From an uncultured archaeon (GTDB lineage Archaea; Asgardarchaeota; Lokiarchaeia; Sigyniarchaeales; SOKP01): 64,000 nucleotides of DNA. Both the position numbers and the translations under genes were made by a program. This document shows, piece after piece, positions 4,918 to 52,958 of the stretch (position 1 is the stretch's first letter; every line of letters begins with the position of its first letter). The notes beneath the pieces were generated by a model. The model worked only from the letters and a program-made list of their open reading frames with translations, had not been told where the DNA came from and searched no databases. The stretch spans positions 32,001 to 96,000 of the forward strand of contig CAZALK010000008.1 of NCBI GenBank assembly GCA_964486045.1. The letters are read 5' to 3'.

Positions 4918-6528
4918 ATGTCAGTACGAAATTTTATAAAAAAAAATCGAATTTTCTCTATTGTGTCAATAGGCTTTCTTATATGGCTAGTATTCTTAAT
5001 AATATTAAGTGTTTTAAATAAACGAAAAATCATTTTCCTCGATGTTCTTAACTCCTATCCTGGAACAGATGTATCATCAGAATATCATTCAGTAGTGCCA
5101 TTGATCAGGTATTTTATTGAACCCTTTGTCGGAATATCTTTTATAATCGGGATGGATTTCGAGTATTTAATTGCTTTAACAATAATTTATCCCATTTATA
5201 GATTATTATACTTATTTCTGAAAAAAAAGGGGCGAATTAACAAGAAAAGATTCAAGAAATTAAAGCCCCCAGTATTTAATTATTTGAGATTTGTGTTTAA
5301 AATATTTTCTTTAACAGTAATAATAATAGCAGTTGCTATATTAATCGGCTATATAATTTCAGGTTATTATTTTGTTAGTCGCCATTTTATGATGATTATT
5401 CAACCAGGAATAAGAATTTGCTTTGTATTATTAATTGTTAAGATTTCCTATTTATTTATGATTTTTCTGCATCCTAAATTAAAATTCAAAAATTTTTCTG
5501 AGAAAAAACTAAAAAAAATTAAAAGAAATTCAAAATTAGCAAAACATTCTGATACAATAAAGATGGAACTTACTTATTTCGTAGCATTAATATATTTAAT
5601 GCTTGCAATAAACATTCTCTTGATTTCTACTCCATTTCCAACTCATCGGATAAATGCTGATTTAGATTATGATGAGTTTTTATTTGATTTTCATGTTCAC
5701 ACAACAATGTCAGATGGTTGGATCACCCCAGAGCAAAGAGTAATGTGGTATATAGAACAAGGAATAGATGGTGCTGCTTTTTCTGACCATGATAATCTCC
5801 GTGGGGTGATTCCTGCTAGAAATTATGTAGAAAGTAACAATTTAGATTTTACTGTTTGGTTAGGAGCAGAATGGACTGATAATGAGAGGGATATTCATAT
5901 GAATTATTATGGTCTAGAAGAAGAAATTGTTGCTCCTATGTCAAAAACATCGTTGGGCATATCTTTAGCATTAAACGCATCAGATATGATCGCCTATGTA
6001 AAGAATCATGGAGGATATGTGATTGTGAACCATTATAATTATAATCCTAATCCAAAAGGAGGTTATGGGACACCATACACTCTTGAGCAACTACGAGACT
6101 GGGGGGTTGATGGTTTTGAAATAATTAATGGTGACCATGTTGAAGAAAAGGAGATAAGAGAATTTTGCTTAAATAATACTAACAACTATAATGAGAGCTT
6201 AATATGTTTTGGTGGTTCTGATATTCATACAAGTGAAGATTTAAATGCTTTTATAAAAGTAAGGTTAAATGATCCTTCAAATAAAACTATCGATAACATT
6301 TTTAAAAATTTAAGAAATAATAGCCATAGTGTGATAACTATTAATTTACATTCTAGCTTAGTAAATTTTCCAAGAGTGCTCAATGTTCTCGGTTTTGAAT
6401 TGCTAGAAGATTATTTAAATTATGTTCTAAATCTAAATTCATTTCAGGTAATTTCCTGGATAGCCTGGTCTTCTATAGGTTATTTATTATTCTTTTTAAC
6501 ATATAGAAAGATTAAAAAACGGATTTAA
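4918..6528 (+). CDS. Membrane-anchored PHP-domain phosphoesterase
   Basis: N-terminal TM helices; HVHTxxSDG, SDHD, GAE, NH, GGSDIH PHP motifs; C-terminal TM. Confidence 0.8.
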   Translation: MSVRNFIKKNRIFSIVSIGFLIWLVFLIILSVLNKRKIIFLDVLNSYPGTDVSSEYHSVVPLIRYFIEPFVGISFIIGMDFEYLIALTIIYPIYRLLYLFLKKKGRINKKRFKKLKPPVFNYLRFVFKIFSLTVIIIAVAILIGYIISGYYFVSRHFMMIIQPGIRICFVLLIVKISYLFMIFLHPKLKFKNFSEKKLKKIKRNSKLAKHSDTIKMELTYFVALIYLMLAINILLISTPFPTHRINADLDYDEFLFDFHVHTTMSDGWITPEQRVMWYIEQGIDGAAFSDHDNLRGVIPARNYVESNNLDFTVWLGAEWTDNERDIHMNYYGLEEEIVAPMSKTSLGISLALNASDMIAYVKNHGGYVIVNHYNYNPNPKGGYGTPYTLEQLRDWGVDGFEIINGDHVEEKEIREFCLNNTNNYNESLICFGGSDIHTSEDLNAFIKVRLNDPSNKTIDNIFKNLRNNSHSVITINLHSSLVNFPRVLNVLGFELLEDYLNYVLNLNSFQVISWIAWSSIGYLLFFLTYRKIKKRI

Positions 6529-21120: not shown

Positions 21121-21564
21121 TTGAGAGTGAAAGTGAAAAATTTGCCTCGTGTAGAGAGAAAAGTGGATATTTCAGCACCTCAAGAAAAGATTTTCAAGAT
21201 AATTGATACAGATCGGGATTATGCTCGATGGAATATTGTCGTGAATGAGGTTACTGAGCTTGGTCCAGGTAACTATTTCTTTAAAACAAATGTGGGAGAT
21301 GTCACGTCAACTCGTGTTGAAACCAATCCGCCTGAGAGTCTTTCTGCGTCTCAAGAAGGAAGCCCAATGACAAGTTTAGGTTATGTATTAAAACCAAAGG
21401 GAGATATTGTAGAAGCTACGATTTGGGCGGAATTCGATGATGCAGGTCAAGAACAAATACTTGGTATGGCTGGGGAGATGCTTGTAAGTAGTTTGAAAAA
21501 ATATGCTGAATACCTTGAAGCTGGAGGAAATCCAGAAGATTATAACAAAAAGAAAAAATACTGA
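21121..21564 (+). CDS. SRPBCC (START-like) family protein
   Basis: ISAPQEKIF...ARWN ... LKKYAE pattern. Confidence 0.75.
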   Translation: MRVKVKNLPRVERKVDISAPQEKIFKIIDTDRDYARWNIVVNEVTELGPGNYFFKTNVGDVTSTRVETNPPESLSASQEGSPMTSLGYVLKPKGDIVEATIWAEFDDAGQEQILGMAGEMLVSSLKKYAEYLEAGGNPEDYNKKKKY

Positions 21565-21582
21565 AATTAATTTATTATTAAA

Positions 21583-22107
21583 TTAGTCTTTTCTTTTATT
21601 TTTTAGCACACTTTTTTCTGCTTCTTCTAAAGAATAAAAAAGATCTCGACCATTGTCATACTTCTCAACGTAGCAGAACCTTAGAAAAAATAAACTTTCA
21701 GGGAAATATTGAATGACTTGTATTTTTTTTATTAAAAGTGAAGGATTTTCATCAATTTTCCCCTGTATTGTTGAAACTACTTCAGGTTGTAGTTTTCTGA
21801 ATTCACTTACAAAAGATAAAAACTTATTTAATGGATCTTGATTTCTATCAACGTTCTCCGTGATAGCATGAGCCCATCCGTATGATAAATTCCAATTAAA
21901 TTTCATTTTAAGCCATTCACCAAAATGTTTGAAAAGAGGAACTCTTACCTCAACGATCGAATGTAATTCTAAACATGAATCATAACCAGCCAAAAACATT
22001 GATAATGATCTGATTGATTTGTCTGGAATGAACATACTTGTACGTTCTTTAATTCTGTCAATCAGATCAAAAATATTTTTCCTTTCAAAATAATTTTTCA
22101 TAGTCAA
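21583..22107 (-). CDS. Hypothetical protein
   Basis: 174-aa ORF just downstream of the polB fragment, same strand. Confidence 0.6.
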   Translation of the reverse strand: MTMKNYFERKNIFDLIDRIKERTSMFIPDKSIRSLSMFLAGYDSCLELHSIVEVRVPLFKHFGEWLKMKFNWNLSYGWAHAITENVDRNQDPLNKFLSFVSEFRKLQPEVVSTIQGKIDENPSLLIKKIQVIQYFPESLFFLRFCYVEKYDNGRDLFYSLEEAEKSVLKNKRKD

Positions 22108-22148: not shown

Positions 22149-22588
22149 TTAGAAAAAAGCATCCATCTTTTTAATACCTTTAACTTCATCAAATGTAATT
22201 CCGAGTGCATCCAACACTTGTTCTAATGCGGATGTCAAGAGCTCCTTATATTTTTTAGTATCAATATCTTGGAGTTTGGCTAATTCTAGTGCTTTTGCTC
22301 CAATAAGACCTTTACTTTTAATAAAACTAATTTTTTCACCCTTTTGAAATTCCCTTTTAGTAATTTTTTTCAATTCGAGAGCAGCTCGGACATGTTGTGG
22401 TATAACCTTAGTATCATTTTTAAGAGCCTTTTTAAGACTCATATTTATCGCGTAATCATTCAAGTTAAAGTATTAGATTTTCGAATTTTTTTGATATTAT
22501 CTCTTACGATTCCAATTATTTCATCTTTAACATTAGTAAATTCTTCAATTTTTGTGATATTTTTTAACATTTCAATTAAAATTGAAAA
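22149..22588 (-). pseudogene. Displaced, frameshifted 3' fragment of family B DNA polymerase gene
   Basis: FSILIEMLKNITKIEEF...KKIRKSNT, 1-nt deletion near 22468, then NLNDYAIN...IPQHVRAA...ALEQVLDALGITFDEVKGIKKMDAFF; aligns to the last ~150 aa of polB (about 61/87 identical by hand in the distal part). Confidence 0.9.
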
Positions 22589-22968: not shown

Positions 22969-23862
22969 TCATTGATAAAAAGGAATAATTCTTGCATAGT
23001 TAATATCTAAAAAATGCAAAATCAATTTAAAATCCTTCAAATTCAGAGTATATATCTTATTCTCTGAATTAATCAATAATTCACATATAAAAAAATCTCC
23101 TAGATTAAAGCAATATCGCGTGTGAAAATCATATTTTCTCTTATTAGTATTAATATCTATCAATTTTTCTACTGTTTTATAGAATCGGTCATCTAAAATT
23201 AATTTATTTTTCTCACAAAAACCTTGGGCTTCATTAAGAATAGTACTAAATACTTTTTTATATTTCTTAGTTAATTGTTCTAATTTAAATTCTCTGGCAT
23301 TGCATATTTTCTTCGCACAGCTATTAATATATAAAAATTCATAACAAAAAGTATTTTCATTATATACGATTTCCCACTCCGATCTTGGACATGGATATGT
23401 TAGGTTATTATTCCATTTAGAGATTTCTTCTTGAAACTCTAATAAATCATTAACAATAATATTAAAAGCTGATTTTACTCTATGAATTTGCTTTTTTTCA
23501 TAATTTGGATCAGATTTCTCTACAGGAATTTTATCAATACAGTTTCTTATAATTGTAACAATAGAGGTACAGCGATTTTTTAATTGAGGGCTTCTTTTTC
23601 TCTGGATATATTGGTTAATATCAATCCAAAAATCATCAACATTAAATTGTTTCTTTTTCGAATTTAATTTTTCAAAAACTATTTCCCTTAATTTAAAAAA
23701 TGAATTTAAAATTACTGTTCCTATCTCTGATTTTAAAATCGGATTAATTAAAATGTTATTTTTAAATGTAATAAATTGATTTTTTATTCTGTCTTTCTGT
23801 GAGGACTTACCATATAAATAATACACCAAAACACTTGTATCGGGGATTATAGCAATAATTAT
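22969..23862 (-). CDS. PIN-domain nuclease with large internal insertion
   Basis: Frame upstream of the annotated TTG reads IIIAIIPDTSVLVYYL (PIN DTSVL motif); C-terminal NLGDFFI and IYTLNLKDF match PIN D..I and T.N.KDF motifs. Confidence 0.7.
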   Translation of the reverse strand: MIIAIIPDTSVLVYYLYGKSSQKDRIKNQFITFKNNILINPILKSEIGTVILNSFFKLREIVFEKLNSKKKQFNVDDFWIDINQYIQRKRSPQLKNRCTSIVTIIRNCIDKIPVEKSDPNYEKKQIHRVKSAFNIIVNDLLEFQEEISKWNNNLTYPCPRSEWEIVYNENTFCYEFLYINSCAKKICNAREFKLEQLTKKYKKVFSTILNEAQGFCEKNKLILDDRFYKTVEKLIDINTNKRKYDFHTRYCFNLGDFFICELLINSENKIYTLNLKDFKLILHFLDINYARIIPFYQ

Positions 23863-23915
23863 ACATCACTCATCTCTTTCTATTATTGCTGTTATTTGCA
23901 TTTTATATTATTCAT

Positions 23916-25130
23916 CTAAAGTTCTATTTTTTCTTTAAAATCAACGAATATATGATGATCTTCTCCTATAATTTTGATCGATTCAATATCGTCTTTTTCA
24001 GAAAATTCATCAATTTCTTCAATTAATTTAAAATCAGTAATTTTTGTTTGTATCTCTTCAATTTTTTTTGATTCAGTTGTCTTCTCTCTTCTAATAATTT
24101 GTTTCTTTTCCTCTTTTTTTATACTTCTTAACTCATTTTTAAATTCTTCATAGTCTATTTCCAGTTCTGGCAATTGATCCTTATAATCTATGAATTCAAG
24201 TGAATTTTTTAATTCATTAAAATGTAATCTTAATTTTTCAATAGAGGTTTTATTCAGAGGATAATTTAATTGCAAGGATTTTAGAAAGAATTTCAAAAAC
24301 TCCTTTTTTGAATCAAGACTAGTTAAGTGAGTTTTTTCAAAAGTAAGTACTTCCAATAATTTATATTTCAAGAATTTAAACGATTCATCTGGATCATCTA
24401 TTGAAATGTTATCTATAGTGAAGACTAAATGTTTTTTATTAATTTGACTTTTAGCTTTAATACCTTGACGAATTTCTTCCAAAATTGAATAAAAATGCTC
24501 TTTCTCTATGTTTTTTTCATTTCTACAGAATAAATTCAAAATACCATCAAGATTGCTAAATAATTTAATGATATAGCCTTCATCTAAGCTATAAATCATC
24601 TTTAATATAACTTCTTGATTAAAGAATTTATTATGCGCTATTATTTGTTCTTTAATAATGGATTTCTGGGTAAATTTAGGCTTTAAGTAATAACAAAGTT
24701 GAATAAGATCAGTCAAATGTTCATGATCATAATGTACTGATAATATTTTAATTAGTTTGATTTCCTTTTTGAGGTCAGAATTATTTATATAGTTATCTTT
24801 TAATATACTTTCAATTTCTTTCTTTCTTTCAGGATTTATTTGATATAATCTTTTAGAATCTATAGGAATAAAATTCGAGTTTTTCTCGAATACTTCTTCG
24901 TAGGAAATGAGTTGCTCAGTAATTAAGGGTGCAATATTCGTTTGAAAATTAACTGCAAATGGACCTAGATTATATGAAATGAAATCAAGATCAGATTCAC
25001 CCTTAAGTTCAAATATTTCCTCTAATAAGAACATTAATTTCATTGCTCTTGTTATTAAGGTAGTGTGTACTTTCGAATAATACAATATCAATAAAATCTT
25101 TTCATTAAAATCTAGATTACTTAAGCTCAT
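23916..25130 (-). CDS. Panacea/SocA(DUF4065)/YwgA-like antitoxin domain + helical and acidic C-terminal extension
   Basis: KILLILY...TRAMKLMFLL...FISYNLGPF signature; 14-nt overlap with the upstream gene. Confidence 0.65.
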   Translation of the reverse strand: MSLSNLDFNEKILLILYYSKVHTTLITRAMKLMFLLEEIFELKGESDLDFISYNLGPFAVNFQTNIAPLITEQLISYEEVFEKNSNFIPIDSKRLYQINPERKKEIESILKDNYINNSDLKKEIKLIKILSVHYDHEHLTDLIQLCYYLKPKFTQKSIIKEQIIAHNKFFNQEVILKMIYSLDEGYIIKLFSNLDGILNLFCRNEKNIEKEHFYSILEEIRQGIKAKSQINKKHLVFTIDNISIDDPDESFKFLKYKLLEVLTFEKTHLTSLDSKKEFLKFFLKSLQLNYPLNKTSIEKLRLHFNELKNSLEFIDYKDQLPELEIDYEEFKNELRSIKKEEKKQIIRREKTTESKKIEEIQTKITDFKLIEEIDEFSEKDDIESIKIIGEDHHIFVDFKEKIEL

Positions 25131-26454
25131 TTTCTATTTCCTCCTTTTTCTTTTTTAATAACTCCCAATTATTCATTTTTAAATTTGTACTAAATATTTC
25201 TTTTATAAATTCTTCTAAATCACAATGCAATTGGCGATCTACATTATAAAAATTATGGTTCATCAAAATAATATTTTGTTTGGTCTTCAATTTTTCCTTT
25301 AGAGTCTTTACTGCTTTTCCCCTGAACTTATTATAAGCATTTACATCAACTGGATTTTGGAAATATATATCAAATGCTCTCTGTAATGATTTAATTCTAA
25401 AATCATAACAACTTGAACATTTACAATTATAGTCTAAACTAGGTTTACGCAATAAATCCTCTGAAAACCCTCGATCATTATAAAATTTACCATTTCTTTG
25501 AAAATAAAATCTTCTGGTTCGAGGAACCATAGCAGGAATATTTACATTAAGACCAGGATACCCACTAATTCTTATAATTTTTTTAATATTAGGATTTATT
25601 TTATCAATAAGTCGTGAGCTACAAACACCAATATAAAACACGAATAATTTAGCAAATACTGAATTGAACTTTTCGATTATATCATAAAACTCCTTCATTT
25701 CCTTTTTACTGGCACTAATCTCATTGAAATCTACAATCCATAATCCTATTTTATTAAAGAACTCATATTTCTTTATTATTTCAGTAATATCATAATGATG
25801 TTTCATATAATCTTTTAGATTTAATACAATCATGGGAATATGGTTATTTAAATTATATGTCTTGACATATTTAAGAGATAGATTATATAATTCCTCAATA
25901 GCTTTTTCATTAATACTATTTAATTTTTTAAAAAAAGAACCTTTCTTAGAAATTTTTATTGGAATTGCTGGTAAAAAAGGAATAGTAAAGCAAGAAACTT
26001 TGAAATTATCATGACTCTTAAATAATTTCTTTTCAATTAAAGTCCTCGGTCTATTTTTGTATTTCTCAACAAAATCAATAATCTGAATTGACTCTGATAT
26101 TTCTTTTTTAAAATATTTTTCTAAATTAGCACCTTGAAAATCAGAAACAAATAAACTATAATCTTTTAGAAGTTTTTCTTTTGTTTCATCGTTTAGAGAA
26201 GGAGTTTGAGGATCTATCAGATAGGGGCGAACATTATAATAATTCTTATATAAAATAACCTCCTTATTAAGACTTTCAATTGATTTTATAAAAGATTCAT
26301 CAATTTGCTTCTGTTTGGTTTTTTTGTCCTCTTTGAAGAAATGTCTTTTAGGAACTAGAAATCCCTTGCATAGAGAATGCTTTAAATAGAGATTTAATCT
26401 TTCAATTTCCGTCTTAAATTGAAGTTTATAATATATATTTGACAATTTAATCAT
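25117..26454 (-). CDS. Putative TIM-barrel protein with TGT-like zinc site
   Basis: YLIDPQT, GLWIVDF, RRFY, CKCSSC and distal HN, resembling the CxCxxC...H zinc site of tRNA-guanine transglycosylase-fold proteins; 8-nt overlap with the upstream gene. Confidence 0.5.
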   Translation of the reverse strand: MIKLSNIYYKLQFKTEIERLNLYLKHSLCKGFLVPKRHFFKEDKKTKQKQIDESFIKSIESLNKEVILYKNYYNVRPYLIDPQTPSLNDETKEKLLKDYSLFVSDFQGANLEKYFKKEISESIQIIDFVEKYKNRPRTLIEKKLFKSHDNFKVSCFTIPFLPAIPIKISKKGSFFKKLNSINEKAIEELYNLSLKYVKTYNLNNHIPMIVLNLKDYMKHHYDITEIIKKYEFFNKIGLWIVDFNEISASKKEMKEFYDIIEKFNSVFAKLFVFYIGVCSSRLIDKINPNIKKIIRISGYPGLNVNIPAMVPRTRRFYFQRNGKFYNDRGFSEDLLRKPSLDYNCKCSSCYDFRIKSLQRAFDIYFQNPVDVNAYNKFRGKAVKTLKEKLKTKQNIILMNHNFYNVDRQLHCDLEEFIKEIFSTNLKMNNWELLKKKKEEIENELK

Positions 26455-26890
26455 TTATTTGTTCTTTTAAGATATATCTTATCTTCTGATAATTCGCTTG
26501 GATAAGATATTTACTTTTTTTCGGCTTTAATTCAATGATATTTTTATCTTTTGATACAATTATTAATCCTATCCCTTCGTTAATTAACATATCTCTATCA
26601 ACTTTATCTTCATAATCTTTCCAAATAGCTAATGAATTATAAGGAATTAGAACCCGATTTCCTAAAGTTTGTCCAAATCCTTTTTTCCAATTAAATACTT
26701 TAAATTCTAATGCGTGGGCAGTTCCAAACCGATTATTATACTTTCTTAGTTGAACAAGATCGATTCTTTTTTGATTATTTTTAACTTCCTTAAAGATTAG
26801 GGTTTTGTCGCCTTCTATCAATTTTAAATTCCCGATATAGGTATTCACCATTTCAAATTCTGAAATAATTTGTTGATTTTTGACCAGCAT
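26447..26890 (-). CDS. Small PD-(D/E)XK nuclease-like protein
   Basis: SEFEM helix, KEV, RIDLV, ALEFK..WKKGFGQ, GIGLI. Confidence 0.65.
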   Translation of the reverse strand: MLVKNQQIISEFEMVNTYIGNLKLIEGDKTLIFKEVKNNQKRIDLVQLRKYNNRFGTAHALEFKVFNWKKGFGQTLGNRVLIPYNSLAIWKDYEDKVDRDMLINEGIGLIIVSKDKNIIELKPKKSKYLIQANYQKIRYILKEQIND

Positions 26891-27069: not shown

Positions 27070-28557
27070 ATGAGGGAAGAAAGGGAAATTAAACGAAACC
27101 ATATCAATACTTCATGTAGTAAAAATGAGTTAACAAAAAACACAGGAAAGGGTAATTATGGGACAATGGATAATTTTTTTGAAGATATTAAATCAGGTTC
27201 TATAGAGGTTGAAAGAGAATATTTTACCAGTAAATCAGGTCTTCCTTATGATGAGGAAATAGTAGTAAAAGATCCAAATGGGATTGTTTGTAAGGTTAAA
27301 ATTGGAAGTATAGAGAATTCATGGAAAAACTTAAAAGTTTTATCAATCAACAAATTTAATTCACCGAAATTTGGTTCACCGAAATTTGTACCGATTATAA
27401 ATTTTTTAAAAAGTGTAACTTCATTTTTATTAAAAATTCGGTTATCAGATGGGAGACAAATTGTCTGTAGTCAGAATCACATTTTTCCTAAAATTGTAAT
27501 TTCTATCAATTTTAAATCATATAATTCTCCAGAAAGCTTCTTTTCAATTAAATATGTGAATGCTAAAGAACTAAAGGAGCGAGATAATTTGTTAGTCTTT
27601 CACAAGATTCCATTGACTTCAAACGTTCCAAAATATATTTTTATTCCTAAACTTCTTAATTGGGAGCATAAATGGATTGGAATAAAAAGAAGTGATTATG
27701 TAAAATTTTCCTATAGAACGAATCAAAGAACTAATAATCCTTTAATACAATTAATAAATTCAAAATTTCAATATTCCAAGGTGGGAAAAAAATATAGAAC
27801 ACTTTGGTCAAATTTATCAAATTCGGAAAAACTTTTTCTTGAAATGGAAGCGAAAAGAAATCACGTTGAAATCTTGATAAAGATCCATGAAAATGTTGGA
27901 TTTTGGTATTCATCAATAGTTCCATTAACAGATGATTTTTTTAGATATTTAGGTTGGTATGTTGCTGAGGGGTCTACAGACAAGAATAGAGTGACTATTT
28001 CTCAATCAAAAGAAAAAAATTATAATAATTGGATTGAAATTATTGATCTCCTTAAGCGATTAGGGTTCCCTGTAAGCATTTGCGCGCAAAATATGATCAG
28101 AATAAATTCAAATGTCTTAACTGAGCTAACAATTGAATTATGCTTAAAATTGGCTCAAAACAAGAAAATTCCTTTAGAATTAATTATGAATAATAGTAGG
28201 ATAAAGTCATTTTTAGAAACATATTATAAAGGAGATGGTTGTCAATTAAGAGGGGAATTAAAGAAATATACAACCACAAGTCAGCAATTAAAAAATGATT
28301 TAGTAAGCATTCTTGGAGCGACAGGACATTTTTGTTCTATTTGGTATCCAAGTTCTTCAGATAATTGTTATCGTATAACCGAAACTGATGGAAAACATTA
28401 TAAAAGAAAATACTTAGGTCTTCTTAAATTCAACAGTACAACTCCCATAAGGATTAAGTCCATAAGAAAAGTTAAAAAAAATTATGATATATTTAATTTA
28501 AAGACTGAAAATGGTTGGTTTGTCTCAACAAACGGAATTTTAGTCCAGGATTCTTAA
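27070..28557 (+). CDS. Stand-alone intein-like protein (Hint + LAGLIDADG/DOD homing endonuclease) with degenerate splicing residues
   Basis: Block A SGLPYDEEIVV (from 27235), block B IVCSQNHIF, LAGLIDADG motifs YLGWYVAEGS and FLETYYKGDG, blocks F/G IFNLKTENGWFVSTNGILVQDS then stop. Confidence 0.85.
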   Translation: MREEREIKRNHINTSCSKNELTKNTGKGNYGTMDNFFEDIKSGSIEVEREYFTSKSGLPYDEEIVVKDPNGIVCKVKIGSIENSWKNLKVLSINKFNSPKFGSPKFVPIINFLKSVTSFLLKIRLSDGRQIVCSQNHIFPKIVISINFKSYNSPESFFSIKYVNAKELKERDNLLVFHKIPLTSNVPKYIFIPKLLNWEHKWIGIKRSDYVKFSYRTNQRTNNPLIQLINSKFQYSKVGKKYRTLWSNLSNSEKLFLEMEAKRNHVEILIKIHENVGFWYSSIVPLTDDFFRYLGWYVAEGSTDKNRVTISQSKEKNYNNWIEIIDLLKRLGFPVSICAQNMIRINSNVLTELTIELCLKLAQNKKIPLELIMNNSRIKSFLETYYKGDGCQLRGELKKYTTTSQQLKNDLVSILGATGHFCSIWYPSSSDNCYRITETDGKHYKRKYLGLLKFNSTTPIRIKSIRKVKKNYDIFNLKTENGWFVSTNGILVQDS

Positions 28558-28607: not shown

Positions 28608-31544
28608 TCAAATAAATCCATCTAATTTTTGAAATTCAAGAGTTTCTAAGCTTGAAATATCAATACCAATACTAAAAGCATCAACAAACTGTTCTAGAGC
28701 TGATCTCAATAGTTCTTTGTATTTTTTCACATCAATATCTTGCAGATTTGCTAATTCTATTACTTTAGCTCCGATTTTATCTTTACTCTTAATAAAACTT
28801 ATCGTTTCGCCTTTTTGATATTCTTTTGCGGTTTTTTTTTTAAATTCTTGAGCAGCTCTAACATGCTGTGGTATTGTTTTTTTATAATTATCAAGCTTCT
28901 TTTGCATAATTATGTTAATTGCATAATCTTTTAAGTTGAACGTGTTGGGCTTTCCGATTTTTTTAAAATTTGAAATAATAAGCTTTTTGATATCTTTCTT
29001 TGCTTTTAAAAATTCATCATAGCTAGTGACCTCTTTAATAATTTCTAATAAATCACTGAAAGCTTTTTTAATAAATTCTGGTGTGTTTTTCTTCTTTGCT
29101 ACAAGGCCTTTCATGTCAATATATTTAGTATCCTTATATACTCCAAGATAATTCTTTTTTCTATCAGAAAGAGCTAAGAATTGATAAGTTTTTTCCTCTT
29201 CCAAGTCAAGATCAAGGGTTTTTTTACTCCAGTCAGTTATTTCACTCAATTGTTCTTTTGAAGGGTTTAAGAGGAAAACAGAATCTGTATCCCCATATAA
29301 AACCTTAATCCCTATTTCTTCAGTTTTTTTTATTGTTTGTTTAATAGAATATTGCCCTATTCCCGTGATGCTTTCTGCTACTGGTAAACAAAACAACGGG
29401 AAATTTTGAGACCCAAAAACACCAAAACTTGCGTTAACAAAAACTTTAAGCGCTTGTTGAATAGTTTGATTATAACTTCTTTGTTTTTCTGTTGAACTTT
29501 TATCTTCTGATTTAGGTTTAAAATACTTAACTCTTATATCCCTGAAAAATCCAACAACATAGGCAAAGATCCCCATCTTTTGAGAGCAAATATGGTATGG
29601 AGAGCCTTTTACTAAATTATCTCGATCTTCTTTATGAGGACAAATAACTGTTTCATAGGAAAGATTGTATTCCTTTATTATTGATGGATATAGACTTGCG
29701 AAATCCATAACAACAACATCAAAATGAATTCCAGGAACAGGTTTTATTACATATGCCCCTTGGAATTTCTTATCGTTCGCGCTAGACATCATTTTTCCCC
29801 CTTTCTTAAGCTCTGAAATCTCAGATCGCCGAGGGATTAAGTAATTCTTCCTACGGTGTTCAAAATGGAAAATATTTCGTATCCATGTTGATATTTGCCT
29901 TCTAACCATTTCATGGACAGGCATTTTAGTTATCCGGCATAACAAAATGATTAAATTCCAAACTAACGAGTTGTTAAATTTTGTCAGTTCTAAGGTTAAT
30001 AAAGAATCTTTCAGGTTATACCAGGAAAGGATATTATAATCCATATCTTGGATTTCTTCCTCATGCTGATATTTTTCCTCTCCCAGAAGAGCAGCACTAA
30101 TAGCATTCAAAGACGAACTTTCATAAGCACCTCCAAAAGCGTATCCAGAGATGCTTCTATTGAAAAATAAATTAAACACGTCAATGTGAATTCCACTCCT
30201 TAGTTCACATTCTGCTTTGGTCATAATACCAAACCCACGTTTAACTTGAATAGGATTAAGGTCTTTATTAACCTTTAGCCTGTCATTTGCCCTATGATAT
30301 AAATAGTTTAAATCAAAATTGTCTCCGTTAAATGTAATAACAACTGGATACTCCCACATTAGGCGAAATGTCTCTATTAGTAAACTTTTTTCAGATTTGA
30401 AGAAGATAACTTTCGCATCAGGAGGAAATTTTTCATGAGGTTTTGTATATTTGTAACCTTCCCTTTCTAGAATATAAACAAGTTTCAACCCATCTGTGGC
30501 AACAAAAGATATACTTATTACTTCCTGTTTGGCTAAGCGAGGGTCTGGAATGCCATGATCTTTAACATCCATACTTACCTCAATATCCATAGCCATACGT
30601 TTGACATCAGGGATTGGAGTAATGAAAATATCCAAAAATGCCTCAGAAAATTCTTGAATCTCGGGGGATTCATCTTTAAATAAATCTCTAAGCTCATTCG
30701 CCACTTTTTTGGAATCTTTATCGATCTTCTCAAAATCTATTTTTTCTAGCTTTCCATTTTTAATACAGTAAATAAGACCGGGGATTAACTGCCTATCGAA
30801 GATATAATTTAAATGATATCGGATATCAGCTTCGTAGGCTTTTTTTCCATTTTCTTCTAAAATAGTACGAATATTTGTCCCAGTGCCACCAATATTTGTT
30901 GGAGTTTCCCCATAAAGCTTTGTAATTTTAATTTCCTTATCGGATAATAAATCAAATTTTTTAATCTCTTCAAATCTTTTGAACCAAGGATATTCAGTTA
31001 ATTTAGTCTTTTCTAACTCTGAAATTGGCTCTTTACTTAAACAGTAAGGTTCATGGTCAGTGGTATCAATCCAAATTTTTATATCGTCTTCGTCTAAATC
31101 ATAGAATTTACAGTATGCTTTATTTTGCCCACCATCATAATCCACATCAAGCAATAACCCTTGATCTAAATTATCTACGATTTTTCCTGTTGCGATTAAA
31201 TAACGAATATATGTCGAAGTTACACCTTCTCTGAGTACTTTATCAAGTTTTACATTGCCTAATTTTAATCCAAAAGGTTCTTTGTTTTCCTTATAAAACA
31301 GATTTTTTGGAATTTCACCACTAACTAATTTTTCTTCAGGGGAAAACTTTTCAATATTTTTCTCTTTAATTGGTTCTGGTTTTTCAGCAGTTTTTTTTTC
31401 TTTAATTTCTTCTTTCGTGGTTACTTTTGCTGGTTCAATTTTCTCACCTTTTTTATCATCTACAAAAGAAAATAAGGATTTTTGCGCTTTGTCTTCAATA
31501 CTCTTCTTATTGCTTTTTTTTGGACTAGGCACTTTGTACACCAA
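28608..31544 (-). CDS. polB: Family B DNA polymerase (PolB1-type), no inteins
   Basis: Exo I DIE, Exo II NGDNFD, Exo III YNLKD; pol motifs DFASLYPS, KVFVNASFG, YGDTDS, KKNY; N-terminal PIP-like QKSLFSF. Confidence 0.97.
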   Translation of the reverse strand: MVYKVPSPKKSNKKSIEDKAQKSLFSFVDDKKGEKIEPAKVTTKEEIKEKKTAEKPEPIKEKNIEKFSPEEKLVSGEIPKNLFYKENKEPFGLKLGNVKLDKVLREGVTSTYIRYLIATGKIVDNLDQGLLLDVDYDGGQNKAYCKFYDLDEDDIKIWIDTTDHEPYCLSKEPISELEKTKLTEYPWFKRFEEIKKFDLLSDKEIKITKLYGETPTNIGGTGTNIRTILEENGKKAYEADIRYHLNYIFDRQLIPGLIYCIKNGKLEKIDFEKIDKDSKKVANELRDLFKDESPEIQEFSEAFLDIFITPIPDVKRMAMDIEVSMDVKDHGIPDPRLAKQEVISISFVATDGLKLVYILEREGYKYTKPHEKFPPDAKVIFFKSEKSLLIETFRLMWEYPVVITFNGDNFDLNYLYHRANDRLKVNKDLNPIQVKRGFGIMTKAECELRSGIHIDVFNLFFNRSISGYAFGGAYESSSLNAISAALLGEEKYQHEEEIQDMDYNILSWYNLKDSLLTLELTKFNNSLVWNLIILLCRITKMPVHEMVRRQISTWIRNIFHFEHRRKNYLIPRRSEISELKKGGKMMSSANDKKFQGAYVIKPVPGIHFDVVVMDFASLYPSIIKEYNLSYETVICPHKEDRDNLVKGSPYHICSQKMGIFAYVVGFFRDIRVKYFKPKSEDKSSTEKQRSYNQTIQQALKVFVNASFGVFGSQNFPLFCLPVAESITGIGQYSIKQTIKKTEEIGIKVLYGDTDSVFLLNPSKEQLSEITDWSKKTLDLDLEEEKTYQFLALSDRKKNYLGVYKDTKYIDMKGLVAKKKNTPEFIKKAFSDLLEIIKEVTSYDEFLKAKKDIKKLIISNFKKIGKPNTFNLKDYAINIIMQKKLDNYKKTIPQHVRAAQEFKKKTAKEYQKGETISFIKSKDKIGAKVIELANLQDIDVKKYKELLRSALEQFVDAFSIGIDISSLETLEFQKLDGFI

Positions 31545-31685: not shown

Positions 31686-32036
31686 CTATGCAATTTTTTT
31701 GTTTTGAGTAATAATATTCTTTATTTCATCTAATAGCAGAGTTTTCTCAGCGATATACCAGTCAAGTTGGCTTTTTGAAGGATTTTCATGATAAATGATT
31801 TCTGAGACATCTCGAATTTCGTTTTCGGGAGGTTTAAGTAATTCACCATTTACATCCTCTCTTATTAATAAAACAAGATTATCGGTTTCTAAAGGTTGGA
31901 TATCATACCCATTCTTTACATTTTTGTTAATAGTAACACAAAGCTCAGCAAGCCGCCAAATCGACTTCTCTAACGTATCTCCTTTCTTATATATACGAAA
32001 CGCTAATCTAACAACATCCTCTTTGGAAAAAGGCAT
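31686..32036 (-). CDS. Hypothetical protein with two DUF2934-like repeats
   Basis: VVRLAFRIY...WRLAE and IRDVSEIIY...WYIAE. Confidence 0.6.
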   Translation of the reverse strand: MPFSKEDVVRLAFRIYKKGDTLEKSIWRLAELCVTINKNVKNGYDIQPLETDNLVLLIREDVNGELLKPPENEIRDVSEIIYHENPSKSQLDWYIAEKTLLLDEIKNIITQNKKIA

Positions 32037-47138: not shown

Positions 47139-50100
47139 TTATTGATTAAGCCTCAAAAAATCTTGAAAATATGAAAATGAGGCGATCTCAGTAGTTCGAA
47201 TAGGTAGAAAGTTAGAAATGTCTACCCACCTAGAAGGTAATCTTCCTAGGTTTGTATATGGTCCAGTTAAAACCACTTGAGTGAACTCTCGTCCTCTGTA
47301 GGTACTTAAAAATGCATTGGAGTTAGGGAGTATCGTACTTGAACTTCGTATGTATTTATGGTTGAAGTATGCTATATAATTCGAGTCGATGATAGTGGCC
47401 CCTGCCTTCTTTATAATAAACATAAAGTCTTGATAACTAAATGAGACTGGTCGAGTGTTATCCGCGCGCAATTCTCGTTCAAAAGAAAGCGATAGTAGCA
47501 CGAGGTATCGTAACTTTGTGATCTCGGAGATTTTTCCATAGGGATTACTAGAGTCTTCTAAGTTGATATCTACAAATGCTTCACCGGATCGTGGCAACCA
47601 TGTTTGGTCTGAAGTTGTTGTGGTTATGTATTGATATCCATAATCTATGCTTAAATCTTGAGATTGACCAAGATTCTGAGTAATGAAAATTCTAACTTTC
47701 CGAGAGCCGGCGGGTTGAGATTCAATTAAGTCTTTTAAGATATCCACTCTTTCATCGATTATCCTTTTATTATACTGTTCTCTAAATGCGGTGTCATAAT
47801 ATGACCAATCCAAATGACTTCTGCTTATTCGAGTAAATTTATCGGAGAACTTCTCCTTATCAATAGTTAACTTAAATATCTCTCCATCGACAATGCATCC
47901 ATAAAAATAGAGCTCGATCGTGGATGAAGTAAGGTCTTGAAAACCTCTATTTAACTGTAACCTCAAATTATCTTTAATCTTCCCTCCAAGGGAATCTACC
48001 GATGTATCAGTTGTAAAAGATCTTGTTAAATCTCTTCTAGCAAACATAAGGGTGTTATATGCATCTTCAAGATTTTTAGCTACTAATTTCCTATAATGTG
48101 ATTCAGATTCAACTTCGGAATAATATTTTGAAGTAAAGTGACTCATAACTTCTTGCTCTATGACGCTCATAATATCTTCATAAGCCATCATCTCTAGTGT
48201 CACTCGATTTATTTTAGGATCAGTCAAAGCATTGTCAATCTTATATTGGTTGAAAGATGTAAGAAAACTAGTCCCTATTGCACGCCCAATATATTGGTTG
48301 ATATGATTTATCCCAAAATCTCTCTTTAAATAAGCAGGTACAGAAATCCCTCCAGATAAAAAGGGTGAGGGGGCATAGCCGAAATAAAACGCGTTGTCAG
48401 CACCATTATCTCCCAAGATGGGCAAATACAAAAATGAATTCCCATATAAATATGATGGTAGGTGATTCTGAATAGCCCCCACAGTAGTAAGAGGTAAATA
48501 TCGTTTATTCTGACGATATCCATCCTGACTATCTTGAGAACTTGAAATGATATTCGCATCAATTATATAATCAACAACTGATTGGAAATGAATCCCTAAA
48601 GGCATTGCATGATAAAGCCCACCGCTAGTGAAATACCACATGGATCTTAATAATATTAAAGTCATAGTGAAGGGACCAACAAGATACTGGAACGCTTCTA
48701 GAAGAATAAGTCCGCGATCCAATTCAGAAAGACTGGAACCTGCATGGGATGTAGAGAACTCTTCATTAGCAGTGTTTAGTGAACCTAAGTTCATGATTAG
48801 GTCTTGAGTGTCGAGAATTATCTCATCAATTTCGTCTCTATTTTCAACACCAGGGTCTTCCCAGCTCATTACGATATCTTTGAAATTTTGGAGAAATTCT
48901 TTCATGGAAAGTTGACCTTTACCGTAAGGATTACCATCTTGATCACGATAAAATAATTTGTTAAATTGACTGAATCCAACTTTTTTCTTTAATCGAGTAA
49001 ATATCGCTTCTAAATCCTTGTCACTCCTTGCAGCGTTGTCGTCATATATAAATTCATCTCCTATGATAACTAGCCTTTGATTGAGCTTCTGAAGGTCTTT
49101 TAGGATGGAGAATACAGGCATAACTTTCGTATTCGCTCCTGCTGTGAGCTTAGCTATTTGGGAAAGTTCTATATAGCCTTTAAATAGATCATCAGTAGAT
49201 ATAGGGTTAGAATCGGGAAGTTTAAGTAAAGAATCTTGCATGACTTTTCGTCTTTGAAGAACTGTGGAACTAGAAACAACTTTCTTATGAGCATCAGTTG
49301 GAATGATTGTAGAATGAACTGGTTGTATAAGATATGTTAGCTTCGTACCTGCCTCATGTTTAGCTGAACGAAGATAGTCAAGGGTGTAGTATTTTTGAAT
49401 TCCGGGGAGTAAGGGTAGTCCTAAAACAATTTCCTGGGTTACTGGGTCTGTATAAGAAATGGATATAGGATCTGAAAGTGCTTGATTTAAAATTTGTGCC
49501 AGAGTCTCAAGGGGCATCACAGCAATTTCAATGAATTGGCCATTTGAATGGCGTATAAATACTTCTCCTATATTCAGAAATCCGTTCTTACTTAAGAAGA
49601 CCCCTTCAAAAACCTTTATAAGTCTACCACCAACAGAATAACTATATCCGTCGGCTGTACCCGAAGGTAATTCTAACTGAGGTGTCTCTGCTAGTAGTAT
49701 ACCATTCTCATTCCTATCATTATGCACAGCTAATAAATTACCAGATAAAATCCTATTAATTTCTTGTTGGCTTAATCTGGAAGGTTCCTTTACAACATAC
49801 TTATCGTTTTCTAAAAGAACAAAATAGGGGACGTTTTGAATTAAGTCTAATGGAATTGGAGTCGTTGTTGGTACATAGACCTTGAAACTGTTATCATAAG
49901 ATATTTGATAAAAGCCATTTAAGTCCTGAGTTATAAGCTGTTCAAGATTTAAATTCTCCTGTTGCCACCTAGGTATTTTAGTAACTTCGAATTTATCCAT
50001 TACAAGCTGTAGCATAGAATCAGCCTGTGAAGCTGAGAATATTTGAGAAGCGTAAACCTTTATTTGGTCATTGAAACTTTTATCTTTAAATAAATTATAT

Positions 50101-52958
50101 AATTCATTCATAAAAGTCACCTTGTTGTTTGAACTTATCTTTTCGTTAATAAGTTTAGAGACTTTTGAATATAGTTCTATGAATTTGGCGTACTTCCTAG
50201 TTTCTTCTCTTGACCTAGATCCTCGGTAAGTAGAGACTATATCACTTGGTTCTTGTATGAATGTAAGTTCTTTAATAACTCTGAATATCGACGAAGGATC
50301 ATCTGGATCCAAAGCTACAACCCAATGTTCATTTTGAGTTTCGATATTAATGTCGTTCAGAGCGACGCTCCTTGATGTAGCACCAAAAATTGTACTAAAC
50401 AAGTCATAAATGATATTCAAAAGATAATCACTTTTGACGTTGTTAGCATTCTTAACTTCCCAATTATAAAATCCTATGCCTTCAACTAAGAGAGAAATGA
50501 GGTCTCCTTCTCTCCAATTATCATTCGACCCGAACAAATCTGCATCGTTATTTATCTTATCGACGATACTTTGTAAAGTATTTCCATCAAGGATTTGTTC
50601 CATGTCTGTTACCATGTCTTGGTTTTTCGTGGAATAAGGATTAAAGACAAGATATGTATAAAGCGTTAATTTATCAAAATCTATCGAGTAACTTTTCGCG
50701 ATTAATTCCATAAATAAGAAATAAGGCAGTATTCCCAAAAATGAAAGTGCTTGAAGTTCCCACCCTATCTGGACGCTTCTTGACTCAAACCTCATATGTC
50801 TTGTATTTGGGGCAGTCTCGAAACTCTCTGCAAATTTAAGCATGGCACGTGGAAGGCCATCTGAAACAAACTCCCTCTGTAAGCTCTCTATATCCGCGGT
50901 TGATAAGAATGAATCGATATCTGAAGCTAAATCTGTCTCCCCGATGGTTTGTACATTGAAATGGGCACGTACTTCTTCCAAGAAAAATACTAATGCTGAA
51001 TACTTAAGCGCTTGATTGAACAAGTCGTCGACATAAGTATAACCCTTAGTTCTTGTTGTATAATCAAACTTCTTTTTATATTTTTCCTCAAAAATTTTGC
51101 TTGCAAGCTTTGTAGCAACATCTTTTTGCGCTATGGTTGCGCTAGGATTTAATATATTATGTGCACCCATATAAGTATTTTCAATAAAAGACTCCAAAGC
51201 GGTTAGAATACCACCCATACTCGCAACAACTTCCGACTTTTCGAGATTAAAAGAAATGACTGAAGGATTAACAAATTGATTAATAACTTCTTCTATTTGT
51301 GCCACAACAGCAGGATTTAAGTTGAAGAGGTCGGTTGGATTTTTAAAGATCGGAGCGATGAGATCCTTAATTTCCACAAAACCTGGATATTCATTAAAGA
51401 ACCAATCAGGGATTGGAACCATGTCTTCAACGCCTGTTTGGGAGGTAAAGTCAGGATCTGTGACGATTTTTATACTTTCCGATAATCCTAGATATTGTTG
51501 CTGTAATGCGACTTTACTTCTAAAATTATATCCGATTAAATCGAAGACTTGTTCAATTGGCATACTCCCTCTTAAAGGAGTATTTACGATAGTTCCATCT
51601 TCTCTTATTTCTTCAACTTCGTAGCCAGGTAAAAGGACATTAGGAAATTCTCCATCACCTTTAAACATAGGTATTTGCCCTTCTTTTAAGCCAAGCATTG
51701 CTATAAAGCCATCCAAGTCAAGACCACCCCTTATGATCTTCTTAGGGTTTCCAACCTGATCAGTCCACCTCACGTATGGTGCGCCAGTTAAGGGGTTATA
51801 TCTTAAGAAGGGAAGAACCCAATGCCTAACTCCATTCTCGTCAGTATAGACGGGATCTCCTGATGTTTCAGCAAATAATTGTTCGGAGATAGCAACGATC
51901 TCTACATCAGATATGCCCTTATCAAGAGTGAGAGACTGGATGGTTGAAAGTCTTTTTTGTTCATTTCTTTTAGATTCGTATCTAATTTTCATTTGCTCAT
52001 TATACGTGAACTCCTCTTGTAATTGGGGTTGAATGACCTGCAATTGAGATTTAGCTGCTGAGGGTGAAGCAACCGTTTGAACCGAAACTAAGTTTTTGGT
52101 CACAAATGGAGCGATTTCATTAGCTTTAAGAGCTGGTTTAGGCTTTAAGAATTCTGAAAGCTGTAGTCTGCCTTCAGAGAACTTTCGATTGTAACGATTC
52201 TTTAGGGCATTAAATATAGCATCCGAACCTAAATCTAAACCATAAAGCATAATGCCGACTCCAGCTCCTCCAAAGAAGAAGCTAGGAATAGTGGCTAGGA
52301 TGCCTGAGACTGTATCGAAGTCTATATATTTCTTAAGAGATGCCCGAATACTTGTTTTATCTAACTTAACCTCTTGCTGCGTTGCAATCTGGGTATCTGT
52401 ATCTGTACCCCCTTTACTAATCCTACTTTTAATAGCACTTGAGACACCTCCAATAAAAGCTTCACGGAAAGAGGTCACAAGTAATGAAAAGAAGTCTGCT
52501 GCTTCTTGATCTCCACCTAAGTTAAGAACCATTCGTTGAGTCCATTTTTCAAGATAGGGGTCTAAATACAATTCTTCTATGATCTCCGAGGCGACACCAA
52601 AAGGTATCGTTACGAGACCTAACGCAACAGCTTGCTTAAAGGAGTATGCGGGCATTGAGGCGATCTTAGCCACAGTCAAGGGTAATAGGACAAGCGTAGA
52701 GATCAACGTTGACCAAAATGTGACTAAAACAGTATAATCGCGTTCAGCTAAGTTAGTACTATCTGTAAACGCCATCTGAGCTTGGTTCACATAATCGGAA
52801 ATGGTATAGGAGACAGTCTGTGCTAAAATAGTTCGTGCATGGTTATCAGAAGAATCAGTGGTATCAATATAACGTTGTGTATAAGATATTGTAGGATAGT
52901 GAAAACCAATAGTTACTGAGTTGTCTGGACGATCATTTGGATCTTGATAGCCGACCAC
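47139..52958 (-). CDS. Giant hypothetical membrane-associated protein, probably 5'-truncated
   Basis: 1939-codon open frame, visibly higher GC than its flanks; hydrophobic segments near aa 75-120 and 215-245; no RBS or convincing start, frame open to about 53003. Confidence 0.8.
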   Translation of the reverse strand: MVGYQDPNDRPDNSVTIGFHYPTISYTQRYIDTTDSSDNHARTILAQTVSYTISDYVNQAQMAFTDSTNLAERDYTVLVTFWSTLISTLVLLPLTVAKIASMPAYSFKQAVALGLVTIPFGVASEIIEELYLDPYLEKWTQRMVLNLGGDQEAADFFSLLVTSFREAFIGGVSSAIKSRISKGGTDTDTQIATQQEVKLDKTSIRASLKKYIDFDTVSGILATIPSFFFGGAGVGIMLYGLDLGSDAIFNALKNRYNRKFSEGRLQLSEFLKPKPALKANEIAPFVTKNLVSVQTVASPSAAKSQLQVIQPQLQEEFTYNEQMKIRYESKRNEQKRLSTIQSLTLDKGISDVEIVAISEQLFAETSGDPVYTDENGVRHWVLPFLRYNPLTGAPYVRWTDQVGNPKKIIRGGLDLDGFIAMLGLKEGQIPMFKGDGEFPNVLLPGYEVEEIREDGTIVNTPLRGSMPIEQVFDLIGYNFRSKVALQQQYLGLSESIKIVTDPDFTSQTGVEDMVPIPDWFFNEYPGFVEIKDLIAPIFKNPTDLFNLNPAVVAQIEEVINQFVNPSVISFNLEKSEVVASMGGILTALESFIENTYMGAHNILNPSATIAQKDVATKLASKIFEEKYKKKFDYTTRTKGYTYVDDLFNQALKYSALVFFLEEVRAHFNVQTIGETDLASDIDSFLSTADIESLQREFVSDGLPRAMLKFAESFETAPNTRHMRFESRSVQIGWELQALSFLGILPYFLFMELIAKSYSIDFDKLTLYTYLVFNPYSTKNQDMVTDMEQILDGNTLQSIVDKINNDADLFGSNDNWREGDLISLLVEGIGFYNWEVKNANNVKSDYLLNIIYDLFSTIFGATSRSVALNDINIETQNEHWVVALDPDDPSSIFRVIKELTFIQEPSDIVSTYRGSRSREETRKYAKFIELYSKVSKLINEKISSNNKVTFMNELYNLFKDKSFNDQIKVYASQIFSASQADSMLQLVMDKFEVTKIPRWQQENLNLEQLITQDLNGFYQISYDNSFKVYVPTTTPIPLDLIQNVPYFVLLENDKYVVKEPSRLSQQEINRILSGNLLAVHNDRNENGILLAETPQLELPSGTADGYSYSVGGRLIKVFEGVFLSKNGFLNIGEVFIRHSNGQFIEIAVMPLETLAQILNQALSDPISISYTDPVTQEIVLGLPLLPGIQKYYTLDYLRSAKHEAGTKLTYLIQPVHSTIIPTDAHKKVVSSSTVLQRRKVMQDSLLKLPDSNPISTDDLFKGYIELSQIAKLTAGANTKVMPVFSILKDLQKLNQRLVIIGDEFIYDDNAARSDKDLEAIFTRLKKKVGFSQFNKLFYRDQDGNPYGKGQLSMKEFLQNFKDIVMSWEDPGVENRDEIDEIILDTQDLIMNLGSLNTANEEFSTSHAGSSLSELDRGLILLEAFQYLVGPFTMTLILLRSMWYFTSGGLYHAMPLGIHFQSVVDYIIDANIISSSQDSQDGYRQNKRYLPLTTVGAIQNHLPSYLYGNSFLYLPILGDNGADNAFYFGYAPSPFLSGGISVPAYLKRDFGINHINQYIGRAIGTSFLTSFNQYKIDNALTDPKINRVTLEMMAYEDIMSVIEQEVMSHFTSKYYSEVESESHYRKLVAKNLEDAYNTLMFARRDLTRSFTTDTSVDSLGGKIKDNLRLQLNRGFQDLTSSTIELYFYGCIVDGEIFKLTIDKEKFSDKFTRISRSHLDWSYYDTAFREQYNKRIIDERVDILKDLIESQPAGSRKVRIFITQNLGQSQDLSIDYGYQYITTTTSDQTWLPRSGEAFVDINLEDSSNPYGKISEITKLRYLVLLSLSFERELRADNTRPVSFSYQDFMFIIKKAGATIIDSNYIAYFNHKYIRSSSTILPNSNAFLSTYRGREFTQVVLTGPYTNLGRLPSRWVDISNFLPIRTTEIASFSYFQDFLRLNQ

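Follow-up and report, generated by a model that had tools for sequence, protein, structure and literature searches.

A TGT-fold barrel protein without the transglycosylase aspartates and its predicted nuclease partner in a mobile cassette of a Lokiarchaeial genome

What is the role of a protein that resembles the transglycosylases of the TGT superfamily but is encoded away from any tRNA-modification genes? The question is raised by the 64,000-nucleotide (nt) stretch analysed here (the window), positions 32,001 to 96,000 of contig CAZALK010000008.1 from an uncultured archaeon of the Lokiarchaeia (Sigyniarchaeales; assembly GCA_964486045.1). A preliminary description, made from the sequence alone, had proposed for one of its genes a divergent TGT-like product that exchanges, excises or reads bases in DNA together with an adjacent nuclease. 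The fold and the link to the nuclease are supported; what that description overlooked is the surrounding four-gene mobile cassette, with a Panacea-like protein and a PIN RNase. Overall, the protein is probably not a base-exchange enzyme and probably acts as a partner of the nuclease. The gene in question is the following.

25117..26454, minus strand: TGT-superfamily TIM-barrel protein, 445 amino acids (aa); start perhaps the TTG at 26445

The gene is real: its minus-strand frame is open throughout all 445 codons, both neighbouring genes overlap it, and all the motifs previously named are present (IDPQT at residues 80-84, CKCSSC at 344-349 and HN at 400-401). Because the homologues begin at codon 4 (TTG), the true start may be at 26445. 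Only 17 representatives matched the protein in a search of 1.84 billion proteins. Pfam, NCBIfam and PADLOC gave no meaningful match for it or its homologues, and sequence searches of the PDB with the barrel protein gave no match. The non-redundant family set has 64 members, and columns were counted in 25 sequences of the query's own clade and in 25 of a sister clade that bears the aspartate discussed below. Identities within the query clade span 20-96%, with full-length open frames throughout. A promoter scan gave signals at chance level only, and a plasmid search with one member of the wider family as query found no match.

The AlphaFold2 model of the barrel protein, built on a 26-sequence alignment, has a predicted local distance difference test score (pLDDT) of 91.6 and a predicted template modelling score (pTM) of 0.91. 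It contains eight barrel strands (residues 7-10, 31-35, 65-69, 152-157, 208-211, 235-240, 269-273 and 291-295), followed by a hairpin (316-325), the Cys cluster and a long helix (385-410) that carries H400, an order like that of TGTs. TGTs were also the best Foldseek matches. In a wide VIA search the model matched ArcTGT with a Z score of 16.6 (root-mean-square deviation, rmsd, 4.6; 298 aligned residues), then bacterial TGT (14.3), QTRT2 (14.1), DpdA (13.7) and Cap10 (13.0). These top five are all members of the TGT superfamily, and the first glycosidase barrel follows at Z 12.3, a modest margin below them. An Asp-bearing sister protein, homologous to the query profile (hhalign probability 99.8%), gave a model that matched ArcTGT at Z 20.1 (rmsd 3.1, 291 aligned) with the identical top five. 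The predicted zinc ligands C344, C346, C349 and H400 are invariant in 25 of the 25 query-clade members, so that both the sequence and the modelled topology display the CxCxxC...H site of the superfamily. The structural ranks, the homologous sister and the invariant ligands together sustain the TGT-superfamily fold, and with it the zinc site that had been read from CKCSSC and the distal HN.

The catalytic residues tell a different story from the fold. In the established TGT structure three aspartates sit at the ends of beta3, beta4 and beta8, and the motifs TDSG, ILD and MDS of Asgard ArcTGT agree with these positions. The three are invariant in TGT and DpdA, where they act as the general acid/base, the base-reading residue and the nucleophile, and two of them are essential (PMC10164549). 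In the query, beta3 is E65-Y69, and the place of the general acid/base (the Asp of DSG; D95 in DpdA) is taken by Y69, a column with tyrosine in 14 query-clade sequences, threonine in six, aspartate in three and asparagine in one. The sister clade ends the same strand in Asp in all 25 sequences; in the one sister protein modelled the strand is F53-D56, and a helix then follows at the same offset. At the end of beta4, placed by strand order, the query has I158-P159-F160 where DpdA has the base-reading D130, and no acid occurs at 158-162 in any of the 25 query-clade sequences. The nucleophile position on beta8 (D256 in DpdA), also assigned by strand order, is likewise without a conserved acid at 290-295 in these 25 sequences; the nearest acid, at position 297, is Asp in 10 of 25 and Ser in the query. 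By strand mapping on the model, then, the query barrel is without all three TGT/DpdA aspartates.

The preliminary description had placed IDPQT where TGT and DpdA have their DSG loop. This equivalence was considered, since one hhalign run aligned the IDP motifs of query and sister, and since the sister protein P0052 has the same eight residues at beta3. It was rejected because both models place beta3 earlier, as do hhalign runs A2 and A3 and MAFFT L-INS-i; basal members have Asp in the Y69 column plus a later RP motif, and D81 lies in a coil (residues 76-88) in a column that is Asp in only 11 of 25 clade members.

Because no TGT/DpdA aspartate position holds a conserved acid in the query clade, base exchange is very unlikely; by sequence and model, the barrel appears to descend from the TGT superfamily but to be a transglycosylase no longer. 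The base excision that had also been envisaged finds no obvious catalytic residue. The surroundings of the gene bear on the same issue. As the preliminary description had stated, queuosine, archaeosine and dpd families are absent from the neighbourhood, here the ten flanking open reading frames (ORFs) scanned, and no PF01702 gene was found on the barrel's contig; the genome's matches to that family are on contigs C1, C5 and C26. PADLOC found no dpd match in the cassette, and QueC was not found in the 99%-complete genome, which leaves the combination that makes up a Dpd system (dpdA, dpdB or dpdC, and a preQ0 supply) without its parts. The genome does carry ArcTGT (C1) and a 699-aa ArcS-like gene (C5), which, with no QueC found, suggests precursor salvage or a divergent QueC. 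One could still propose, from the superfamily fold, the zinc ligands and the adjacent nuclease, that the barrel puts 7-deazaguanine into DNA or RNA in the manner of DpdA or TGT while the nuclease restricts unmodified DNA; with all three invariant aspartates lost, no DpdB/DpdC-like gene in the cassette and no QueC found, this is highly improbable.

The loss did not leave an unconstrained pocket. Positions fixed in the sister clade have changed (an invariant Gln, 25 of 25, is Tyr in 19 query-clade sequences; the beta4 Tyr, 25 of 25, is Y in 10, F in eight and L in four; the beta1 Arg, 23 of 25, is K in 10, R in six and W in three). In their place the query clade conserves R76-P77, D215, W239, D242, N244, E245, R295, Y299, N303, N305 and Q393, and it also keeps a GYPGxNxNI loop and an RT(R/K) stretch at 312-314. 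Because the clade conserves a residue set of its own in place of those lost, the pocket seems remodelled rather than decayed. That the gene is decaying or inert cargo, with the activity of the cassette confined to the Panacea-PIN pair, would account for the lost ancestral residues, but it conflicts with full-length frames across so deep a clade, with the tight gene overlaps, and with the invariant zinc ligands and new clade-specific invariants; we give it very little credence. In the phylogeny the Asp-less proteins form one branch (Shimodaira-Hasegawa-like approximate likelihood ratio, SH-aLRT, 88; 94 for the query's clade) nested among Asp-bearing proteins, the root being arbitrary.

The other three genes of the cassette are the following.

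26447..26890, minus strand: PD-(D/E)XK (restriction-endonuclease fold) protein, 147 aa; invariant residues in 22 homologues
23916..25130, minus strand: protein with a Panacea/SocA- or DarG-C-like N-terminal domain, 404 aa; PADLOC DarG 1.7e-5, a weak assignment
22969..23862, minus strand: PIN-domain protein, about 297 aa; tetrad D8/E46/D256/N274, PF01850 in relatives

In tightly packed order, the cassette consists of the nuclease, the barrel, the long Panacea-like protein and the PIN RNase. The small nuclease carries the E...D...(D/E)xK...Q catalytic motif, with E11, D44, E62, K64 and Q74 invariant and E35 conserved in at least 90% of 22 homologues, so that its site looks intact; members of its family have weak Pfam matches to restriction-endonuclease families (best MTES_1575, 2.7e-5). 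Since adjacency of nuclease and barrel is the most constant feature of the family, the nuclease was chosen as partner for complex prediction. The predicted complex scored 0.68 and the best of three controls 0.00, on a scale where the pass mark is reached by 58 of 80 solved pairs and two of 110 mismatched pairs. The runs share at least 94% of their contacts, with partner pLDDT at 87 or more. No comparable solved complex is known to us and the barrel has no PDB sequence match, so that memorisation of a solved structure by the predictor is an unlikely reason for the pass. In the model, the barrel is predicted to bind through its C-terminal hairpin region and zinc subdomain (residues 310-337, 361-370 and 386), and the nuclease through residues 38-41, 73-81, 104-105 and 128-133, which include the helix with the invariant Q74. 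The model supports binding, though a prediction is no proof of it, and speaks for a functional link to the adjacent nuclease.

A complex of this kind could also mean that the barrel recognises a modified base or a nucleic-acid structure and directs the nuclease there, as in a two-subunit, modification-dependent restriction enzyme resembling type IV, with the Panacea-PIN genes as a backup suicide pair. In favour of this, bases are what TGT pockets bind, no specificity domain is evident in the 147-aa nuclease, and both the predicted complex and a conserved basic stretch (R312-T313-R314-R315) ahead of the hairpin would fit nucleic-acid binding. Such a specificity subunit is nevertheless unlikely: the residues with which TGTs read bases (the beta3 and beta4 Asp and the stacking aromatic) are the ones lost, and the nuclease is predicted to sit where TGT-family enzymes engage their macromolecular substrate, on part of the hairpin and zinc subdomain.

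The two remaining cassette proteins are longer than their known counterparts. The gene for the 404-aa protein overlaps the barrel gene by 14 nt, and its product has a DarG match (C-terminal region of DarG; residues 22-161) followed by some 200 aa of helical extension and by an acidic tail; SocA_Panacea (PF13274) was found in its family only weakly, at E 0.086 in one member. The PIN protein carries the acidic tetrad and a large helical insert with four conserved Cys, and PF01850 was found in eight of 15 members of its family (best 1.1e-5). The codon of its first catalytic Asp (window 23829-23870) precedes the first standard start, the listed TTG, and from the sequence translation probably starts at an ATA or ATT just past a GAGTGA motif.

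Nuclease and barrel lie side by side in both gene orders and at nearly every locus; at the exceptions, L028, L033, L059 and L062, no nuclease ORF was called beside the barrel. The gene order of the query is found again, with different flanks, at unrelated sites of other genomes and in metagenomes, and one copy sits between an integrase and McrB. Relatives that bear the Asp mostly have a short Panacea-like gene, a variable gene (a short PIN or a membrane protein), the nuclease and the barrel, so that the query clade is, from these alignments, an Asp-less subclade with reversed gene order. Aspartate loss, gene order and the enlarged Panacea-like and PIN proteins coincide, but they count as one event and do not amount to a statistical correlation. 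The family occurs patchily, in 16 of 400 Asgard genomes by a narrow profile and in 24 of 400 by a wider one, and the G+C content of the cassette is 0.24-0.27 against 0.31. A conflict system fits this patchy presence, the differing flanks, the low G+C content, the integrase/McrB copy and the swappable gene (PIN, membrane protein or Sir2-like). No description of the four-gene cassette was found in the literature searched, the coverage of which was incomplete.

Other members of the family were seen in passing. A second cassette of the same genome, on contig C13 (L024:5553-8380), contains a Panacea-like protein, a membrane protein, a nuclease and a barrel with the beta3 Asp intact. A third TGT-like cassette, on C26 (L043:302-2595), encodes a 384-aa barrel-like protein with CxCxxC...HN and a weak PF01702 match, together with 205-aa Panacea-like and 173-aa GNAT-like proteins (read by eye). 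At L116:3952-7581, a Panacea-like gene, a nuclease and a barrel are followed by a 397-aa Sir2-like gene in place of the PIN (read by eye), and at L064:1059-2048 a 329-aa ORF has nuclease sequence at its start and a barrel-profile match, which makes it either a genuine fusion or an artefact of a frameshift.

Several known systems share parts of this arrangement. TGTs (ArcTGT 1iq8, bacterial TGT, QTRT1; PF01702) and DpdA (7ui4) have in common with the query the barrel, the hairpin and CxCxxC...H on a long helix. However, the query is only 7-11% identical to them, has no Pfam match, lacks the acid/base, base-reading and nucleophile aspartates and lies in a mobile conflict cassette, with the host's own ArcTGT elsewhere; as judged from model and sequence, it belongs to the TGT superfamily by fold and falls outside the TGT/DpdA enzyme family. 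QTRT2 (6fv5), the non-catalytic eukaryotic TGT subunit, also combines the TGT fold and zinc site with absent catalysis and a partner-subunit role, but its partner is a paralogous TGT, whereas that predicted for the query is a PD-(D/E)XK nuclease; there is no sign of a special relationship, and independent loss of catalysis is most likely. Cap10 of type IV CBASS (9ntn; 10.1101/2025.04.06.647259) is a TGT fold remodelled for partner binding in anti-phage defence. It keeps the catalytic and base-reading aspartates, has no zinc site and needs the QueC-like Cap9, and the query is its mirror, with zinc ligands kept, aspartates lost, and neither QueC nor a CD-NTase. PanA-PanT (Panacea/SocA, PF13274) and VapBC-type pairs likewise place a Panacea-like protein beside a PIN nuclease with an intact tetrad, but in the query both proteins are about twice the usual size (through the helical extension and the Cys-rich insert) and travel with the nuclease-barrel pair.

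A probable functional parallel is TIM-B, including P4 Beta (PF14350) of the anti-phage system gop-beta-cII (PMC9122126). There, as in the query, a TGT-related barrel lies in a compact conflict operon with interchangeable effectors and a restriction endonuclease (REase). TIM-B proteins have been proposed as negative regulators of diverse effectors, with nucleobase transfer predicted (10.64898/2026.10.19.760177); no arrangement with both Panacea and PIN is listed in the TIM-B section of that work, where TIM-B is said to retain active-site residues. Unlike the query, P4 Beta is without the CxCxxC motif, and the cII REase has long helical extensions. PF14350/sce7725 libraries gave no match for the query barrel or 21 homologues. 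Comparison of P4 Beta with the wider family profile gave a probability of 0.1%, and the P4 cII REase gave no profile match, both being weak tests with a single sequence; profile comparison is also blind to true TGT kinship (with ArcTGT it aligned the Cys cluster only), which limits what it says of Beta. A genome search with PF14350 had no match anywhere, controls included, and is hence uninformative. By analogy, the query probably works like P4 Beta/TIM-B, and by sequence it is not a member of PF14350.

The likeness to TIM-B also raises the case for a new chemistry, in which the beta5/beta6 acids and the beta8 loop would make up a relocated active site that cleaves or transfers a nucleobase or nucleotide, for example to give an inhibitory product or to modify an effector. 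Its proponents could point to the prediction of nucleobase transfer for TIM-B (10.64898/2026.10.19.760177), to an Asp that P4 Beta also has at the end of its apparent beta6 (read by eye), and to D215, D242, N244, E245, R295, Y299, N303, N305 and Q393, strongly conserved at strand ends among proteins 20-45% identical. But the beta3 Asp, invariant in the sister clade, is dispensable in the query clade, D242 and E245, which come after a buried Trp, may have a structural role, and the cassette is not accompanied by any co-substrate or biosynthetic gene, so that we consider this rather unlikely.

The reading that we prefer, with a probability of about 0.47, is that the barrel is a non-catalytic switch subunit gating the nuclease in a toxin-antitoxin or defence-like module, a role that parallels those of P4 Beta/TIM-B and the non-catalytic QTRT2. 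With its hairpin and zinc subdomain touching the nuclease helix that carries Q74, the barrel would keep the nuclease inactive or correctly assembled until an infection-signalling ligand or partner arrives at the remodelled pocket, which comprises the beta5/beta6 acids, the beta8 Arg and the GYPGxNxNI loop. The PIN RNase would be neutralised by the long Panacea-like protein, and the whole may be a toxin-antitoxin or abortive-infection module with two effectors, one a DNase and the other an RNase. Fold, residue loss and cassette are computational results and the complex is a prediction; gating, sensing and defence are what we infer.

A number of points weigh against such a switch. The polar set of the query clade (D215 in 21 of 25, D242 in 23 of 25, an acid at E245 in 25 of 25, with R295, Y299, N303 and N305) could be a new active site. 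The residue mapping onto TGT comes from strand order and alignments and not from an inspected superposition; the profile-profile alignment with ArcTGT yields no residue mapping, and the hhalign run that paired the query IDP with the sister IDP disagrees with it. The barrel face of the predicted interface is only moderately conserved, inhibition and activation of the nuclease look alike in the complex model, and the Panacea-PIN pairing was deduced from gene order alone.

How the cassette came to its present site can be read from its borders, which lie in the polB gene.

22149..22469, minus strand: displaced native polB 3' end, left insert border; from the 282-nt repeat and PolB comparison
28608..28940, minus strand: replacement polB 3' end brought by the insert, right border; from the repeat and PolB comparison
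27070..28557, plus strand: free-standing intein-like ORF with LAGLIDADG homing endonuclease; other cargo of the insert

An imperfect 282-nt repeat (72% identical, spacing 6471) brackets the cassette. The PolB C-termini of 18 of 18 relatives are 77-91% identical to the displaced fragment versus 59-65% to the present gene end, and in several relatives the gene that lies here at 21121 comes immediately after polB. Because the downstream repeat copy is, by the PolB of relatives, the native end, an insert of about 6.5 kb appears to have replaced the polB 3' end. Three congeners (G177, G194 and G226; L138-L140) have different cargo at the same site, which argues for a recurrent insertion hotspot; in G194 this is a similar intein-like ORF with no cassette. 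No integrase was seen in the polB-site inserts of the window or of these three genomes. On another Asgard contig (L108:411-845 and 4944-5378) a cassette relative lies between two 435-nt, 96%-identical actin 3' ends, a pattern like that at polB.

Some further features of this region were recorded. The intein-like ORF at 27070-28557 has Gly where the first Cys or Ser is expected, ends in QDS-stop and is without a host protein. A 174-aa ORF (21583-22107, minus strand) with no family match separates the displaced polB end from the conserved gene downstream; a similar ORF follows polB in some relatives, which suggests an older small insert. The polB frames of G212, G182, G186 and G180 are 1318-1378 aa long, and in G180 and G186 the match falls into two parts, the pattern that an intein inside polB would give. 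Elsewhere in the window, a 1939-aa ORF (47139-52958, minus strand) lies in a stretch of higher G+C content.

TGT-fold proteins recur in immunity, as DpdA, Cap10 and Beta/TIM-B, with the pocket used differently each time, and TGT-fold regulators in conflict operons already have precedent. The family described here adds a zinc-containing branch with a minimal nuclease as its predicted partner, and its clades with and without the catalytic Asp are a natural pair for asking whether catalysis is needed. More speculatively, and on balance doubtfully, it may represent an undescribed class of prokaryotic immune system, built on a single complex of a TGT-fold zinc protein with a minimal PD-(D/E)XK nuclease; in an Asgard subclade the barrel would have become a pseudoenzyme sensor, perhaps of modified viral bases or a nucleotide signal, with the Panacea-PIN module enlarged alongside. 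Should the barrel direct the nuclease to modified bases, the result would be a modification-dependent restriction enzyme of a new type. For the Asgard archaea themselves, the borders at polB here and at actin in a relative suggest that such cassettes are acquired by replacing the 3' ends of housekeeping genes.

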